From an uncultured Candidatus Saccharibacteria bacterium (lineage in GTDB: Bacteria > Patescibacteriota > Saccharimonadia > Saccharimonadales > JAUPVS01), in the NCBI GenBank assembly GCA_964410185.1, contig CAYPFM010000001.1, positions 144,860-208,859 of the forward strand: a stretch of 64,000 nt of DNA, in the 5' to 3' direction. Each line of letters opens with the position of its first letter. Positions within the stretch are counted from its first letter, which is position 1. The position numbers were made by a program, and so were the translations under genes. The notes beneath the pieces were generated by a model. That model was not told where the DNA came from and searched no databases. It was given only the letters and a program-made list of their open reading frames with translations. Below are positions 10,855-13,268 of this stretch, piece by piece.

Positions 10855-10931
10855 GTGCCCGTAGCTCAGCTGGATAGAGCGTCGGCTTGCGGAGCCGAAG
10901 GTCGTAGGTTCGAATCCTGTCGGGCACACCA
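10855..10931 (+). tRNA. tRNA-Arg (anticodon GCG), CCA encoded
   Basis: GTGCCCG TA GCTC AGCTGGATA GAGC G TCGGC TTGCGGA GCCGA AGGTC GTAGG TTCGAAT CCTGT CGGGCAC A CCA folds as a cloverleaf. The loop TTGCGGA gives anticodon GCG. Confidence 0.85.
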
Positions 10932-10939
10932 ATAAAAAC

Positions 10940-10964
10940 GCCTCACACTTGTGGGGCTTTTTTA
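10940..10964 (+). terminator. Rho-independent terminator after tRNA-Arg
   Basis: A 7-bp stem GCCTCAC/GTGGGGC with loop ACTT, followed by TTTTTT. Confidence 0.6.
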
Positions 10965-10975
10965 TTGGTCAGTCG

Positions 10976-11093
10976 GAATGAATGAGAGCCGTAGCGCGTA
11001 GCGCAGGTTCGACGGCAAGGTGCACGCGCAGAAGTTTACTTCGAGCATGTGCCGCAGACGGTAGCGCAGCGTTCATCCTGTCGGGCACACCAA
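10976..11093 (+). repeat. tRNA-linked repeat, copy A: T-loop-like GGTTCGA, conserved hairpin (11019..11053), then an exact 19-nt copy of the tRNA-Arg 3' end
   Basis: 11075..11093 (ATCCTGTCGGGCACACCAA) is identical to 10914..10932. The core is about 75 percent identical to 13171..13252, including the exact 15-mer GAGCATGTGCCGCAG. Confidence 0.6.
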
Positions 11094-11149
11094 AGTATTA
11101 CTGAAAGATCTCTCTGGAGGTCTTTTTTGTTTGTTATACTTACGGCAAT

Positions 11150-11755
11150 ATGAAAACTGCTTTTGTTATTGCCGGGTTTAATATGAACCAGAGTGCCGCA
11201 GACCCAAAGTACGAAGAGCTTCGGCAAGCTATAGAAGCAAGGGGCTACAAGGTCATTGCTTCGCCTTTGCACTGGAATAAAAAAACTGTGTCCGAGTACA
11301 CAAAAGAATTTATAGACTTCTATAAAAGTAATAAGGGCGACGAAGGGAACATTGTTATCGGAAATTCGTTCGGCGCAATGGTGGCTTTTCTTTCAGCTCC
11401 GATTATTAAGCCAGACAGGGTTTTGGTTTGTTCATTATCTGCCTACTTCAAAGAGGACATGCACAAACAAAAGCAAAATTACATGGTGCGTAGATTTGGT
11501 AAAAGGCGTACTGCCGACTCTCATATCATCTCAGCAGATGAAACCGCGAAGAAGATTAATGGTGCGCGTGTACCCATAACGTTCATGAGGGGCGAAAAAG
11601 AAAACTGGGGGCGATTCATCAAATTAAGTGAGCGTGTAGAACAGAGTGCAAAGGCCGTAGAAGGAAGCAGACTCGTCATAGTACCTGATTGCCCCCACTC
11701 TTTTCGTACCCCCGAATATATTAAGGGAATATCGGCCGAGCTTGACAAGTTCTAA
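11150..11755 (+). CDS. Alpha/beta-fold hydrolase (201 aa)
   Basis: Nucleophile elbow GNSFG within IVIGNSFGAMVAF, plus a C-terminal PDCPHSF that could supply the catalytic His. Confidence 0.7.
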   Translation: MKTAFVIAGFNMNQSAADPKYEELRQAIEARGYKVIASPLHWNKKTVSEYTKEFIDFYKSNKGDEGNIVIGNSFGAMVAFLSAPIIKPDRVLVCSLSAYFKEDMHKQKQNYMVRRFGKRRTADSHIISADETAKKINGARVPITFMRGEKENWGRFIKLSERVEQSAKAVEGSRLVIVPDCPHSFRTPEYIKGISAELDKF

Positions 11756-11812
11756 CCTCAACCAGCATGTCACAACCAAACAAGGACCCCACTTGACTGG
11801 GGTTTGCGCTGT

Positions 11813-12208
11813 TTAGGCCTGGTTTTCTCTGTGCTTGTTGAGGGTTTTCTTAAATATGACCAGTGGCAAGACAAGGCCGGCGATAAGTGCACCCAGCCAT
11901 ACAATCAGCGTTGCCAGCACCCAAGTGCTGAGACCACTAATTGTCAGACCATCCGAGAAAATATCGGTAATGATTAGCCCTACCAGGGTCGTAACCAGTG
12001 CGATGCCTCCGACCAGGGCGGGCAGATTCTTAAGAGCTATTTTGATAATCAAAGGGCCAGCCACTACTTCGGTAATAGTGAAGATCAATACGGCCGTAAC
12101 AAAGGCGACGCCATTAATCGAAAAACCCGGTAACACGGCCGCGGCCACCAGCAAACCAGCTGTGTTAGCGAGTAGATGGAGGACGGCACTGGCTAATAAT
12201 CGAATCAT
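11813..12208 (-). CDS. Four-TM membrane protein resembling holin superfamily IV (PF04020-like)
   Basis: 131 aa, four TM helices. The N-terminus MIRLLASAVLHLLANTAGLLVAAAVLPGFSINGV resembles that family from memory. Needs an HMM check. Confidence 0.45.
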   Translation of the reverse strand: MIRLLASAVLHLLANTAGLLVAAAVLPGFSINGVAFVTAVLIFTITEVVAGPLIIKIALKNLPALVGGIALVTTLVGLIITDIFSDGLTISGLSTWVLATLIVWLGALIAGLVLPLVIFKKTLNKHRENQA

Positions 12209-12247
12209 TTTTAACCCCTCATTTATATGCGCAGTATAGCAGAATAA

Positions 12248-12853
12248 TTAGAAACGAACTTTGTGCAGCAAGCGGTCAACCGCATCTTTTTGACGGTCTT
12301 CGTAGGGCAGGCGTGCGCCCAAAACACCGACAATAATATCCTCGTCGGAGGGTTCGTAGTAAATGCTCAGTGGCGGCATGAACCGTTTCATCGGCAGGAG
12401 GCCAATTGAGCTGACGGCACCCTCATCCACAACCGAAAATGACTTAAAGTCTGCGTACGAGTACGACTTTTCGCCAATATGAATCCCGCTGGCATCCATG
12501 CGATAGGTTAGTGTGCGCGGTTTTCGGCCGGCGATTACCCCAAGCAATACTGCGACAATCAAAACGACAACGACTGAAACAAGATCTTTCGTTAACAGAT
12601 ACAGCGCGCCAGAAAAAACCAAGGCGCCAAGGCCCAAAAGCCAGTACCAAGTTTTATTTTTTTGATGAGCGATAAACTCTGAGGCGGTCCATTCGACGGT
12701 TGCTTCACCCTTGGGTTGTTCGGGCGGGTCGGCAGGATCAGCTTGCTCCTGATTGTACTGCCAGGCAGCAGGTGGTTGCGGAGAATTAGGGGACTCGGGT
12801 TGCATAAGCGTATTGTACACGGTTTGGGGCCACAAAGAAATTGCCGCTGCCAC
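12248..12853 (-). CDS. Membrane protein: Pro-rich N-terminus, TM hairpin, C-terminal PH-like domain (YdbS/bPH_2-like guess)
   Basis: The architecture resembles bacterial PH-domain membrane proteins. An alternative start is MQPESP at 12805. Confidence 0.5.
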   Translation of the reverse strand: MAAAISLWPQTVYNTLMQPESPNSPQPPAAWQYNQEQADPADPPEQPKGEATVEWTASEFIAHQKNKTWYWLLGLGALVFSGALYLLTKDLVSVVVVLIVAVLLGVIAGRKPRTLTYRMDASGIHIGEKSYSYADFKSFSVVDEGAVSSIGLLPMKRFMPPLSIYYEPSDEDIIVGVLGARLPYEDRQKDAVDRLLHKVRF

Positions 12854-12873
12854 TGTAAAAGTACTGCTCTCTC

Positions 12874-12882
12874 TGGTATAAT
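12874..12882 (+). promoter_or_regulatory. Extended -10 promoter element (TGgTATAAT) upstream of the tRNA-Ser pair
   Basis: TGGTATAAT at 12874..12882, about 40 nt upstream of the tRNA-Ser(GCT) 5' end. Confidence 0.45.
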
Positions 12883-12922
12883 CTCCCTGTTCAGCTCTTT
12901 AGTCGCGTGCGACTTTTGACGC

Positions 12923-13015
12923 GGAGGGGTACCCAAGTGGCTTAAGGGGACGGTTTGCTAAATCGTTAGTGGGGAGCAATCTCCAGCGAGGGTTCGAATC
13001 CCTCCTCCTCCGCCA
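12923..13015 (+). tRNA. tRNA-Ser (anticodon GCT), class II, CCA encoded
   Basis: GGAGGGGTACCCAAGTGG...ACGGT TTGCTAA ATCGT plus a long variable arm, then GGTTCGAATCCCTCCTCCTCCGCCA. Confidence 0.85.
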
Positions 13016-13038
13016 ACTTTAGAACTGAACACATTTAT

Positions 13039-13128
13039 GGAGAGGTGCCCGAGCGGTCGAAGGGAACGGTCTTGAAAACCGTCGTGCCAGCAATGGTACC
13101 GTGGGTTCGAATCCCACCCTCTCCGCCA
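13039..13128 (+). tRNA. tRNA-Ser (anticodon TGA), class II, CCA encoded
   Basis: GGAGAGGTGCCCGAGCGG...ACGGT CTTGAAA ACCGT plus a long variable arm, then GGTTCGAATCCCACCCTCTCCGCCA. Confidence 0.85.
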
Positions 13129-13130
13129 AA

Positions 13131-13164
13131 TTAAAAGACTACGTCGCAAGATGTAGTCTTTTAA
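13131..13164 (+). terminator. Hairpin terminator after tRNA-Ser(TGA)
   Basis: A 12-bp stem TTAAAAGACTAC/GTAGTCTTTTAA with a 10-nt loop, followed by a T-rich tract. Confidence 0.5.
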
Positions 13165-13170
13165 TTTGTT

Positions 13171-13268
13171 GAGTGAATGAGAACCCAACCGCGCAGCGGG
13201 GGTTCGATCGCCAGGCACACGCACAGGAACTTGTTCCGAGCATGTGCCGCAGGGAAACTTATCCCACC
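13171..13268 (+). repeat. tRNA-linked repeat, copy B: T-loop-like GGGTTCGATC, conserved hairpin (13214..13248), then a short ATCCCACC match to the tRNA-Ser(TGA) 3' region
   Basis: Same module order as copy A. The hairpin stems differ by compensatory changes (GGCACA/TGTGCC versus GGTGCA/TGTGCC; GGAAC/GTTCC versus GAAG/CTTC). Confidence 0.55.

Follow-up and report, generated by a model that had tools for sequence, protein, structure and literature searches.

An apparently undescribed family of small folded cassettes behind tRNA genes in Saccharibacteria

The window analyzed here, a 64,000-nt stretch of contig CAYPFM010000001.1 from an uncultured Candidatus Saccharibacteria bacterium, contains two related copies of a repeat, each behind a tRNA gene and a terminator-like hairpin (Table 1). 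Copy A (10976-11093) follows tRNA-Arg(GCG) and copy B (13171-13268) follows tRNA-Ser(TGA). The neighboring genes are ordinary; the decayed 3′ end of copy B adjoins the stop codon of a convergent comF-like gene (13268-13948, minus strand).

Table 1. Features at the tRNA-Arg and tRNA-Ser loci of the window.
Feature	Position	Strand	Basis
tRNA-Arg(GCG), anchor of copy A	10855-10931	+	ARAGORN; Rfam tRNA, 69 bits
Direct repeat 1 (E), tRNA-Arg T-loop nt 59 to CCA, plus A	10914-10932	+	Exact 19-nt match to 11075-11093
Terminator 1, hairpin GCCTCACA-CTTG-TGTGGGGC with T-run, within the repeat-bounded unit	10940-10967	+	Terminator scan; heuristic
Copy A left-end motif GAATGAATGAGAGCC, degenerate antisense T-arm copy; last 5 nt form the H1 5′ strand	10976-10990	+	
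Copy A H1, outer stem GAGCC/GGTTC around inner hairpin GCGC-GTA-GCGC	10986-11010	+	Folds; family pair counts
Copy A junction J1 GACGGCAA; family consensus ...CAAG	11011-11018	+	Alignment A4
Copy A H2, basal GGTGCA/TGTGCC, apical GAAG/CTTC, loop TTTA	11019-11053	+	Alignment; pair statistics
Copy A junction GCAG	11054-11057	+	Alignment
Copy A H3, GTAGCGCAGCGTTC type, small GC-GNA-GC hairpin, then degenerate T-loop start	11061-11074	+	
Direct repeat 2 (E′), exact tRNA-Arg 3′-end copy	11075-11093	+	Sequence
Terminator 2, probably the original tRNA-Arg terminator, since displaced	11103-11133	+	Terminator scan; conserved in relatives L325/L326
tRNA-Ser(GCT)	12923-13015		ARAGORN
tRNA-Ser(TGA), anchor of copy B, last gene of the Ser(GCT)-Ser(TGA) pair	13039-13128	+	ARAGORN; Rfam
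Palindromic terminator-like hairpin with T-run, tRNA-Ser to copy B	13132-13166	+	Heuristic, −17.1 kcal/mol
Copy B H1, GAACCC/GGGTTC around CCGC-GCA-GCGG	13181-13205	+	Folds
Copy B H2, GGCACA/TGTGCC, internal loop as in copy A, apical GGAA-CTTG-TTCC	13214-13248	+	Folds; alignment
Copy B junction GCAG	13249-13252	+	Alignment
Copy B decayed E′, ATCCCACC = tRNA-Ser nt 59-66	13261-13268	+	Sequence

The two copies are homologous and align without gaps, with 62 of 85 positions identical (73%). All coordinates and strings that the initial annotation had given for them are present in the sequence, including the exact 19-nt repeat behind tRNA-Arg. Within the window, the 15-mer GAGCATGTGCCGCAG has exact matches only in copies A and B, and the left-end motif occurs only twice (0.23 occurrences expected). 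In the folds, this motif, which has the form GARTGAATGAGARCC in both copies, provides the 5′ strand of a hairpin (H1), and the GGTTCGA segment that had been described as T-loop-like is the 3′ strand of the same hairpin (tRNA-like GGTTC(GA) in copy A). The segment is indeed derived from tRNA, but it is not a loop, and what had been proposed as T-loop mimicry amounts rather to a T-arm-derived strand held in a helix. In copy A, the second hairpin (H2) has the conserved internal loop C-GC-RCA/GA-GC-A, and the third (H3) nearly repeats GTAGCGCAGGTTCGA at 10998-11012. GTAG-led palindromes, together with a RAYT gene in the genome, characterize REP/BIME; copy A has GTAGCGC three times, which is not general across the family. 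An ATG-started frame is common to A, B, and one other copy (L235), with a 40-codon ORF at 10982-11104 in copy A, but the ATG and reading frame are missing from most family members.

Copies A and B are members of a repeat family tied to tRNA genes, as initially proposed, and the possibility that only these two copies exist is contradicted by approximately 50 further copies, which come from metagenome contigs and from relatives of this Saccharimonadales/Patescibacteria genome. They apparently belong to a large Saccharibacteria family of small folded cassettes that is new to description. A 21-base pattern matched 71 metagenome loci, compared with approximately nine expected by our own estimate, and approximately 49 of these are true copies, which were sorted from chance matches partly by eye. 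Several positions that appear invariant were imposed by this pattern, and alignment A6 was fitted to the model. Almost all copies lie 39-104 nt 3′ of a tRNA gene, always in the same orientation, and the tRNAs involved are of 14 amino-acid types. The unit is approximately 120-170 nt long, and its order is terminator (usual), H1, CAAG, H2, GCAG, H3, and E′; the GCAG junction was fixed by the search pattern, and copies found by the model also have GAAG or GACG. By a heuristic assessment, a hairpin with a T-run lies between tRNA and cassette in 24 of 33 cases, and no room is left for a promoter, so that cassette RNA could be made by read-through only. The cassettes of L267 and L286 begin 3 nt past CCA, have no intervening terminator, and are certainly co-transcribed with the tRNA. 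No protein family recurs within 2.5 kb of the cassettes, no integrase, Rep, transposase, TnpA, or TnpB is linked to them, and neither a recombinase nor an excised form nor an autonomous partner was found for them.

In the family alignment, H2-H3 always follow TTCGA plus 2-6 nt, with hairpins at both ends, and the point at which they divide the tRNA 3′ fragment is precisely the nt 58/59 boundary of the T-loop. The tRNA-derived portion of the unit consists of the T-stem 5′ strand with TTCGA and of the 3′ end only. L272 is the exception; there, H2-H3 interrupt a full-length, degenerate copy of tRNA-Thr that has an intact tRNA gene alongside. Assignment of the units as tRNA genes or pseudogenes was rejected, as they are called by neither ARAGORN nor the Rfam model RF00005.

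The initial annotation had pointed to compensatory changes in the stems and argued that the hairpin is selected for its structure. These changes are real and hold family-wide, and the covariation of H2 across the family bears out the argument. Among 49 distinct copies, H2 pairs in 94.5% of cells, compared with 74.8% in shuffles (0/500), with double changes in 121 cells compared with 35, and its covariation is 0.545, compared with at most 0.10 when the partners are slid. A 2-bp helix within the H2 loop also covaries (GC, CG, AU, and UA) in copies found independently of the pattern. For H1, its inner hairpin, and H2 taken together, 95.3% of cells pair, compared with 75.5%. Judged by the excess of G·U over A·C pairs, H1 and H2 fold on the tRNA-sense strand only. 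H2 has 21 G·U and 4 A·C pairs, along with 16 tandem G·A cells, and H1 folds at −16.2 kcal/mol on the plus strand and −13.4 kcal/mol on the minus strand (p = 2.6e-7; 68 G·U vs. 17). The folding energy of the whole unit has no strand preference. G(CUUG)C is a frequent loop in H2, and GC-GNA-GC is the form taken by the inner hairpins. A kink-turn, which has a 3-nt bulge and then tandem sheared G·A pairs, was considered for the internal loop of H2 and rejected on inspection of alignment A4; G30-C41 and the next apical pairs are Watson-Crick and covary, leaving a 3×2 loop (RCA/GA).

The copies carry T-arm and 3′-end sequence of tRNA, as had been recognized at the outset. E′ reproduces the 3′ end of its own tRNA exactly over at least 13 nt (13-22 nt) in 25 of 36 cases, starting at T-loop nt 57-59 and running through to CCA. 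The repeat is longer in some loci (35 nt in L299 and 60 nt in L269), for an overall span of 0-60 nt. Between the window and L320, E′ differs along with the allele of its tRNA, and in L300 it matches the tRNA allele of another genome, not its own. In copy B, L235, L236, and L283, E′ has decayed, yet H1-H2 persist. The H1 5′ strand and the region upstream of it are the reverse complement of each cassette's own tRNA. This reverse-complement origin is not accounted for by the reading favored below and counts against it. A closing helix between the antisense stretch and E′ had no statistical support (mean z of −0.7; z < −2 in 4 of 23).

At tRNA-Lys(CTT), L309 has an extra 168-nt unit compared with L300. 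This unit has its own terminator and is flanked by exact 19-nt AGTCCCAGATGGCCCTCCA, and the filled and empty sites differ by exactly one repeat-bounded unit. The next unit differs in its interior between L300 and L309, with flanks that are approximately 95% identical. Tandem units are present in L309 and L235. Overall, cassettes follow about half of the sampled tRNA genes. With one index tRNA per locus set aside, 8 further tRNA units have a cassette and 13 (approximately 60%) do not, and the same tRNA, namely, Arg(TCT) or His(GTG), is found both with and without one. Orthologous copies occur behind tRNA-Ser(TGA) in the window, L235, and L236 and behind tRNA-Arg(GCG) in the window, L320, and L325, at genus-level divergence. 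Behind tRNA-Arg(TCG), the cassette interior is approximately 95% conserved and the flanks have diverged. In L277, a large serine recombinase and a PvuII restriction-modification system lie between tRNA-Glu and the cassette, and L278, L292, L288, L296, L312, and L316 have similar junctions. The reconstructed empty site of the L277 island is the L293 sequence, in which the cassette is already present, so the island is a later, unrelated insertion.

For known classes, a search of the window against Rfam (release 15) returned tRNAs only, and the cassette region (10840-13300) had no match even at E ≤ 10. In nine other loci, Rfam matched nothing beyond tRNAs and, elsewhere, a single group I intron. 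No cassette match came from collections of phages, plasmids, and viruses or from the literature, and the same pattern had no match in IMG/VR viral contigs. The earlier statement that no described family is recognizable agrees with these Rfam and literature searches.

These comparisons show how the units are built, that their covariation is strand-specific and their repeats are tRNA-specific, and that units are gained, stacked, and replaced between genomes. The explanation that we favor, with a confidence somewhat short of even, is a new family of non-autonomous, protein-less cassettes at tRNA 3′ ends with a fold selected as a single-stranded nucleic acid, the likelier form being RNA. Each cassette would lie between two copies of the last ~19 nt of the tRNA (T-loop nt 58/59 to CCA), the upstream copy completing the working tRNA and the downstream copy, E′, being an insertion footprint that may decay over time. 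The cassette would usually bring a terminator for the tRNA, followed by the conserved sense-strand fold, which is made up of H1 (the T-arm-derived GGTTCGA strand and its complement), H2 (a fixed, asymmetric internal loop flanked by stems that vary and covary), H3, and the fixed single-stranded joints CAAG and GCAG. Spread may proceed by recombination at the tRNA 3′ end. A trans-acting recombinase could carry this out, or DNA imported by these competent bacteria could undergo homology-facilitated recombination. H1-H2 would be the part kept by selection, acting as single-stranded nucleic acid. We favor the RNA form slightly over ssDNA; such RNA would be made by co-transcription with the tRNA or by read-through from its strong promoter. 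Of the two readings offered initially, a miniature mobile element or tRNA-associated structured RNA fits the data, but attR scars of integrative elements fit poorly.

That the fold of the same cassettes works as ssDNA is possible but somewhat unlikely. H1, the antisense stretch, and E′ would rebuild a mimic of the T-arm/acceptor duplex with H2 and H3 bulged at the crossover, and a trans-acting recombinase would exchange strands with the tRNA gene, as at attC or the CTX attP. The T-loop-to-3′-end geometry of the repeat, stacking, unit replacement, and optional presence all fit, and the cassettes share the hallmark of attC, i.e., conserved structure, variable sequence, and strand-specific folding. 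Hairpins of the GC-GNA-GC type, as found inside these cassettes, are very stable DNA mini-hairpins. The terminator before most copies argues against a need for transcription, and by our own derivation an exchange point between H3 and E′ yields the observed order tRNA-E-terminator-antisense-H1-H2-H3-E′. However, the cassettes have no linked integrase, Rep, or transposase, IMG/VR viral contigs lack the pattern, and the H1 core TCGAAC/GTTCGA misses the attC consensus at the fourth position. The G(CUUG)C loops and the G·U and tandem G·A pairs in the stems are typical of RNA. In addition, the two copies of the window are on the plus strand and to the left of the dnaA origin, which makes the strand that folds the template for the leading strand and the less exposed of the two.

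A non-mobile host feature of tRNA units is quite unlikely. Such a feature may be a tRNA-like 3′ trailer by which RNase P or other RNases set the ends, a fail-safe terminator, or an insulator, originating by local duplication of the tRNA 3′ part, with repeat identity maintained by gene conversion or selection. Its retention behind tRNA-Ser(TGA) and tRNA-Arg(GCG) across genus-level divergence, the conserved interior at tRNA-Arg(TCG), the tracking of tRNA alleles by E′ in the window and L320, and the certain co-transcription in L267 and L286 all favor such a role, for which there is precedent in the tRNA-like processing signals of mascRNA and plant t-elements (PMC8457004). Yet most other tRNA units lack the element, the same tRNA is variable across genomes, new units are inserted as old ones decay, E′ of L300 matches the tRNA allele of another genome, and a strong terminator usually lies ahead of the element. 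Moreover, for the conserved H2 and joints to be homologous behind 14 tRNA types, they must have spread from locus to locus. Decayed attL/attR arms of integrase-bearing islands or prophages formerly in these tRNA genes, the first reading of the initial annotation, are very unlikely. Tyrosine-integrase elements classically leave behind a direct repeat of the tRNA 3′ end that begins in the T-loop, and islands do use tRNA 3′ ends here, as in L277 and the six loci with similar junctions. However, none of ~54 copies has a gene (integrase or cargo) between the repeats, the distance from tRNA to H1 is 39-104 nt with one exception, and random decay would not repeatedly leave the same minimal unit. The stems covary, which duplex protein-binding arms do not need, the L277 island inserted separately and later between tRNA and cassette, and the motif is on no viral or prophage contig. 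That nothing specific is involved (chance similarity, tRNA pseudogene fragments, or a small protein gene corresponding to the 40-codon ORF) is extremely improbable. The frame common to A, B, and L235 and the tRNA derivation of T′ and E′ are in line with it, but this reading is effectively refuted by the family matches and structure statistics; the frame is missing in most members, tRNA finders call no unit, and H2 has no counterpart in tRNA.

Among known systems, the cassettes resemble tRNA-integrating islands, prophages, and tycheposons in insertion into the 3′ part, the T-loop-to-3′-end direct repeat, restoration of the tRNA, supply of a terminator, and site reuse that leads to stacked units. 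Unlike those elements, they have neither integrase nor cargo and total only ~120-170 nt, and one homologous interior, which covaries and folds strand-specifically instead of forming duplex protein-binding arms, recurs at no fewer than 14 tRNA types. With integron attC and the folded CTX attP they share conserved structure with variable sequence, strand-specific folding, the lack of a recombination gene of their own, and arrays built by successive insertion. They differ in that the attC consensus RYYYAAC/GTTRRRY is unmet (H1 core (A/G)NCGAAC/GTTCGA(A/T), the fourth base on the GTT side being C, not a purine), IntI, a Xer-exploiting phage, and a cassette ORF are all missing, units follow tRNA genes, and the target is the tRNA T-arm, which the fold partly copies in both orientations. 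MITEs and REP/BIME are likewise small, non-coding, hairpin-rich, and intergenic, often near terminators and variable in presence; in contrast, the cassettes are diverse (73% identity between A and B, with stems differing throughout on the same contig), have repeats of 0-60 nt rather than of fixed length, lack clear terminal inverted repeats, and keep a strict tRNA association in fixed orientation.

Structured RNA right behind another RNA is also known from MALAT1 mascRNA, plant mitochondrial t-elements, and bacterial tRNA 3′ external transcribed spacers. The cassettes share with these systems acceptor/T-arm-like sequence ending in CCA and possible release by tRNA-processing enzymes, but they have no model-recognized cloverleaf, hold the T-arm strand in a helix, usually follow a terminator, and are optional and mobile-like. 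The place of H2-H3 between nt 58 and 59 recalls archaeal non-canonical tRNA introns at 58/59-59/60 and split or permuted tRNA genes, but the interrupted copy is in every case accompanied by an intact tRNA gene, and this bacterium is not known to have the archaeal splicing endonuclease. Miniature IS200/IS605-derived elements insert 3′ of a fixed pentanucleotide, with subterminal hairpins and no target duplication; the position of H2-H3 after TTCGA plus 2-6 nt and the hairpins at both ends may fit such an element, but it would leave the intact tRNA copy upstream unexplained, and no TnpA or TnpB lies nearby. Guide-RNA-bearing transposon ends, namely, those with IS200/IS605 omega RNA or IS110 bridge RNA, are alike in placing a conserved RNA scaffold by a ~19-nt target-identical segment, with target-like TTCGA directly 5′ of the H2-H3 insert. 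The cassettes differ in having a much shorter scaffold and no TnpB, IscB, or IS110 recombinase nearby, and a guide with the sequence of that segment would match the adjoining essential tRNA gene. It is decidedly unlikely, though conceivable, that the cassettes are a self-contained, protein-less targeting device, in which sense and antisense T-arm/3′-end copies, borne by the transcript or by the folded sense strand, surround a fixed scaffold of H2, CAAG, and GCAG and guide a recombinase encoded elsewhere in the genome to the tRNA gene. If so, integration would be retargetable and specified by nucleic acid, moving to any tRNA by copying of its T-arm, with a logic akin to that of bridge RNAs and folded ssDNA att sites in a form unlike either.

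Copies A and B, the two repeat units that lie 3′ of tRNA genes in the window, read in the sequence as the initial annotation had described them, and their coordinates were borne out. The two copies can be aligned without gaps, with 62 of the first 85 positions identical, and the exact 15-mer and left-end motif that they share are found only at A and B within the window. In A, positions 11075-11093 (19 nt) are identical to 10914-10932, the 3′ end of tRNA-Arg from T-loop nt 59 to CCA plus one base. This tRNA 3′ end is designated E, and its downstream direct-repeat copy that closes the cassette E′; in B, E′ has decayed and just ATCCCACC is left. 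The folds of A and B have two hairpins in common. One is H2, the hairpin reported previously, which forms in both. The other, H1, has an outer stem (GAGCC/GGTTC in A; GAACCC/GGGTTC in B) and an inner hairpin (GCGC-GTA-GCGC in A; CCGC-GCA-GCGG in B). Because A and B fold into H1, the GGTTCGA once described as T-loop-like, though present, is the 3′ strand of a helix rather than a loop, and the left-end motif is its partner strand. The tRNA-Ser(CGA) of the window has no cassette; about 20 nt from its 3′ end (10147-10171, minus strand) lies an ORF labeled HIT-family-like by inspection of the sequence, with neither terminator nor cassette between, which suggests a tRNA-mRNA co-transcript.

Coordinates of features in the window
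Feature	Position	Strand	Remark
HTH-HAD protein	8657-9514	-	285 aa; N-terminal Cro/C1-type HTH fused to HAD-like hydrolase domain
tRNA-Ser(CGA)	10171-10260	-	ARAGORN, Rfam
tRNA-Arg(GCG)	10855-10931	+	ARAGORN, Rfam
Copy A	10976-11093	+	
tRNA-Ser(GCT)	12923-13015	+	ARAGORN, Rfam
tRNA-Ser(TGA)	13039-13128	+	ARAGORN, Rfam
Copy B	13171-13268	+	
T4SS_pilin genes (at least three)	14677-17362	-	T4SS-like cluster (14677-31030)
PrgI-like protein	22065-22997		T4SS-like cluster
TraG/VirB4-like ATPase	23898-25823		T4SS-like cluster
1102-aa M23 peptidase	25836-29144		T4SS-like cluster
Protein with phage tail lysozyme, C39 peptidase, and GDSL lipase domains	29141-31030		T4SS-like cluster
recF	32809-33864	-	origin region (32809-38439)
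dnaN	33905-34996	-	origin region
dnaA	35263-36675	-	origin region
yidC	37495-38439	+	origin region

The neighbors of the copies are ordinary chromosomal genes, namely, those for ValRS, the HTH-HAD protein, an alpha/beta hydrolase, a ComF-like phosphoribosyltransferase, HSP20, and a T4SS-type pilin run. The T4SS-like cluster adjoins copy B, and synteny of the pilin run is kept in the relatives L235 and L236. The cumulative GC-skew minimum of the window falls at approximately 30-36 kb. Both copies lie on the plus strand to the left of the origin, such that their tRNA genes (10.8-13.1 kb) are transcribed head-on to the replication fork.

Through the ComF-like protein, whose homologs carry the source names Candidatus Saccharimonadales or Patescibacteria, we found the unit behind tRNA-Ser(TGA) also in L235 (69% protein identity) and L236/L237/L239 (77%). 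In these contigs, the H2 stems are wholly different in sequence yet paired, and the internal loop is unchanged. A 21-base pattern derived from four known copies was then scanned against a metagenome collection and matched 71 loci, compared with about nine expected by our own estimate; 22 of these were obvious chance matches in high-GC coding sequence and the others had the full architecture, with real and chance matches sorted partly by eye. The pattern fixes TTCGA, CGCRCAG, CGAGCA, and GCAG, so those columns carry no evidence of conservation, and only ten extra model hits do. The covariance model R2, built on the core, recovered such copies outside the pattern. The initial annotation had left the extent of the family to a search of this kind, and many copies exist beyond A and B.

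The position of copies 3′ of tRNA genes, which it proposed to check, also holds widely. Across all loci, cassettes follow tRNAs of 14 amino-acid types (Arg, Ser, Glu, Leu, Gly, Met, Thr, Gln, Phe, His, Lys, Asp, Trp, and Pro), always on the tRNA's own strand; in about nine copies, the sequence directly upstream is not a tRNA but a short remnant of a tRNA end, followed by the terminator of the cassette. Each of the four tRNA units of L320 (Arg-GCG, Ser-CGA, Ser-TGA, and Ser-GCT) has a cassette, and the picture is similar in L309, L283, L300, and L280. At one very GC-rich locus, the homologs of the neighboring protein are named Candidatus Saccharibacteria. Since the loci were ascertained through the presence of a cassette, the frequency of 41 among 54 tRNA units scored should be read beside that obtained with one index tRNA per contig set aside, namely, 8 of 21 (13 without a cassette). 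Both tRNA-Arg(TCT) and tRNA-His(GTG) were found with and without a cassette.

Other searches were negative. For genome contigs, the 16-mer CGAGCATGTGCCGCAG gave chance matches only among the at least 120 matches listed. For viral contigs (IMG/VR), all 112 matches of the 15-mer were due to chance, none of the 14 matches of a looser two-gap pattern was confirmed by the covariance model R1, and the pattern productive in metagenomes had no match. No match was found by blastn in phage and plasmid collections. Short-read assemblies of this organism and its relatives break in or beside cassettes (Logan contigs L001, L234, L325, and L326); the contig start of L325 and L326 is in H2, and the contig end of L236/L237 is in the tRNA. 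Such breaks are expected for a repeated element, and cassettes will therefore be under-represented in MAGs.

A complete unit has nine items in a fixed order. After the CCA of the tRNA comes (1) a hairpin with a T-run (24/33 cases by our heuristic), often a long palindrome that takes in the CCA itself. It is followed by (2) a degenerate reverse complement of the tRNA acceptor 3′ strand and T-arm, which is tRNA-specific (z-scores of the alignments reach 8.5), (3) a short inner hairpin, most often GC-GNA-GC, and (4) the T-stem 5′ strand of the unit's own tRNA plus TTCGA. Items 2-4 together form H1, and item 4 mirrors even unusual T-stems (GGGGT in L264, CCCAG in L276, and CAGGA in L304). Next are (5) two to six bases and the joint CAAG, (6) H2, (7) the joint GCAG (or GAAG/GACG), (8) H3, which is a variable hairpin or GTAGCGNAGCGTT, and (9) E′, an exact tRNA copy from T-loop nt 57-59 to CCA. 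E′ has a length of 13 nt or more in 25/36 cases and reaches 35 nt in L299 and 60 nt, terminator included, in L269. A second terminator lies 3′ of E′ in 19/46 cases, including copy A. Terminators that are long, nearly perfect palindromes with outer arms that include the tRNA's CCA (CCAAT-A-tract-hairpin-T-tract-ATTGG) were observed in the window (10933-10970 and 13129-13168), L263, L269, and L309; in these, the tRNA 3′ end can thus pair with sequence just past the T-run. The sole member that retains the tRNA 5′ part is L272 (~1850-2095), where H2-H3 splits the T-loop (nt 58/59) of a full-length degenerate tRNA-Thr(CGT) copy, with the intact tRNA-Thr(CGT) 40 nt beyond. A small-protein reading (40-aa ORF at 10982-11104, in a frame common to B and L235) was rejected because the ATG and frame are absent in most members.

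The compensatory stem changes between A and B had been taken to indicate a selected structure, and 49 distinct cores corroborate this. In H2, 94.5% of cells are paired, compared with 74.8% after shuffling (0/500); double-change cells number 121 vs. 35, and the covariation score is 0.545 compared with at most 0.10 with the partners slid. Among the pattern-independent copies, the 2-bp helix in the H2 internal loop changes from G-C to C-G, A-U, or U-A, and RCA/GA is fixed; a kink-turn for this loop was ruled out by inspection. When the H1 outer stem, inner hairpin, and H2 are taken together, 95.3% of cells are paired compared with 75.5%, in a model-fitted alignment of 56 copies that leans toward structure by construction. 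The non-Watson-Crick cells of H2 comprise 21 G.U vs. 4 A.C, plus 16 tandem G.A. For H1, the folding energy is -16.2 kcal/mol on the plus strand and -13.4 on the minus strand (p = 2.6e-7), and G.U pairs number 68 vs. 17. The fold is therefore one that the tRNA-sense strand adopts as single-stranded nucleic acid. Such strand-specificity is limited to H1 and H2, with no difference in folding energy between strands for the whole unit. A proposed closing helix, P1, which would pair the antisense stretch with E′, is frequent in minimum free energy folds and failed the shuffle test.

Closely related contigs provide evidence of gain, loss, and exchange. L300 and L309 are collinear, and at tRNA-Lys(CTT), L309 carries a further unit of 168 nt that brings its own terminator and has the exact 19-nt repeat AGTCCCAGATGGCCCTCCA on both sides; in the older unit 3′ of it, the flanks are ~95% identical between the two contigs and the interior differs. 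The reverse is found at tRNA-Arg(TCG) (L300, 2380-2600; L309, 1313-1530), where the interior is ~95% identical and the flanks have diverged. Here the E′ of L300 corresponds to the tRNA allele of L309, not its own. This tRNA differs between the two contigs in both acceptor strands and the T-stem, which suggests that the whole tRNA gene was replaced. In L235, a second H2 unit lies upstream of a decayed older unit that is the counterpart of copy B's H2. H1 and H2 are retained despite a decayed E′ in B, L235, L236, and L283; E′ therefore resembles a footprint, with H1-H2 as the apparent target of selection. At the window's tRNA-Arg locus, an empty site was sought through homologs of the neighboring 201-aa hydrolase: synteny is gone at 70% identity or less, and the 85% relatives L325/L326, whose contigs start inside H2, have the orthologous cassette. 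The interval between comF and the tRNA-Ser(TGA) cassette also varies, with no insert in the window, a MazE-PIN toxin-antitoxin pair in L236 (5686-6369), and a 252-aa protein without a Pfam hit in L235 (5726-6484). No protein travels with the cassettes: for the 160 ORFs lying up to 2.5 kb from 44 of them, the largest similarity cluster had three members. An origin of the sense-antisense-sense layout in tandem-inversion duplication by template switching was rejected, as it cannot explain a family-wide homologous inner hairpin and H2.

These observations establish a solid case for a repeat-bounded, tRNA-anchored cassette that is gained and lost, and for a conserved sense-strand fold inside it. 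Regarding what the fold does, we tentatively favor action as RNA, to which we assign slightly less than an even chance. The G.U and tandem G.A pattern would fit this reading, as would the frequent G(CUUG)C loops and the fixed single-stranded joints. Co-transcription is certain in L267 and L286, whose units begin 3 nt past the CCA, and in this window the folding strand is the leading-strand template; both points also favor RNA. Action as single-stranded DNA is somewhat less likely in our view, but has points on its side: a terminator stands ahead of most units and the inner hairpins follow the GC-GNA-GC type. Moreover, H1 together with the antisense stretch and E′ is able to reconstitute a double-stranded copy of the target T-arm, with H2-H3 bulged at the junction, and exchange at the H3/E′ boundary would then yield the observed order.

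Two further explanations do without a mobile unit of this kind. That the cassettes are a non-mobile trailer of the host seems improbable, and that they are decayed arms of integrated islands is more doubtful still. The latter is countered by L277, in which tRNA-Glu(TTC) lies 5.6 kb upstream of the cassette and an island (1234-6900) occupies the extreme tRNA 3′ end. It encodes a 513-aa large serine recombinase, a MerR-like protein, an N6/N4 methylase, an HTH protein, and a PvuII endonuclease, and thus carries a PvuII-type restriction-modification system. Once its junctions are joined, the sequence is that of L293, which has this cassette immediately 3′ of tRNA-Glu; the island was therefore inserted later, and, judging from these junctions, is not the parent of the cassette. 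Similar junctions precede cassettes in L278, L292, L288, L296, L312, and L316. None of these readings accounts for how each cassette acquired T-arm copies of its own tRNA in both sense and antisense orientation.

The genomes of Saccharibacteria are tiny, at ~1 Mb, and contain very little non-coding sequence, and to our knowledge the RNA biology of this phylum is almost unexplored. Despite this compactness, a non-coding unit of 120-170 nt lies behind a large share of the tRNA genes sampled. If the fold is RNA, it would represent a class of tRNA-linked RNAs that is both new and abundant. Should it serve as a substrate for recombination, it would represent a new route by which tRNA genes are targeted with no integrase linked to the unit, and would drive the gene turnover observed just 3′ of these tRNAs, including toxin-antitoxin pairs and restriction-modification systems. 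In either case, the family accounts for stray tRNA 3′ fragments and assembly breaks beside tRNA genes, and the covariance model is ready for annotating Saccharibacteria genomes.

The cassette has no match in Rfam, at gathering thresholds or at E ≤ 10, and our literature search found no description of it. A group I intron (Rfam RF00028, 83.5 bits) is present at 96-337 of L288, a Saccharibacteria-like contig with two cassettes. The group I introns described in Patescibacteria tRNA genes concern position 35/36 and are unrelated to these cassettes (PMC13011429).
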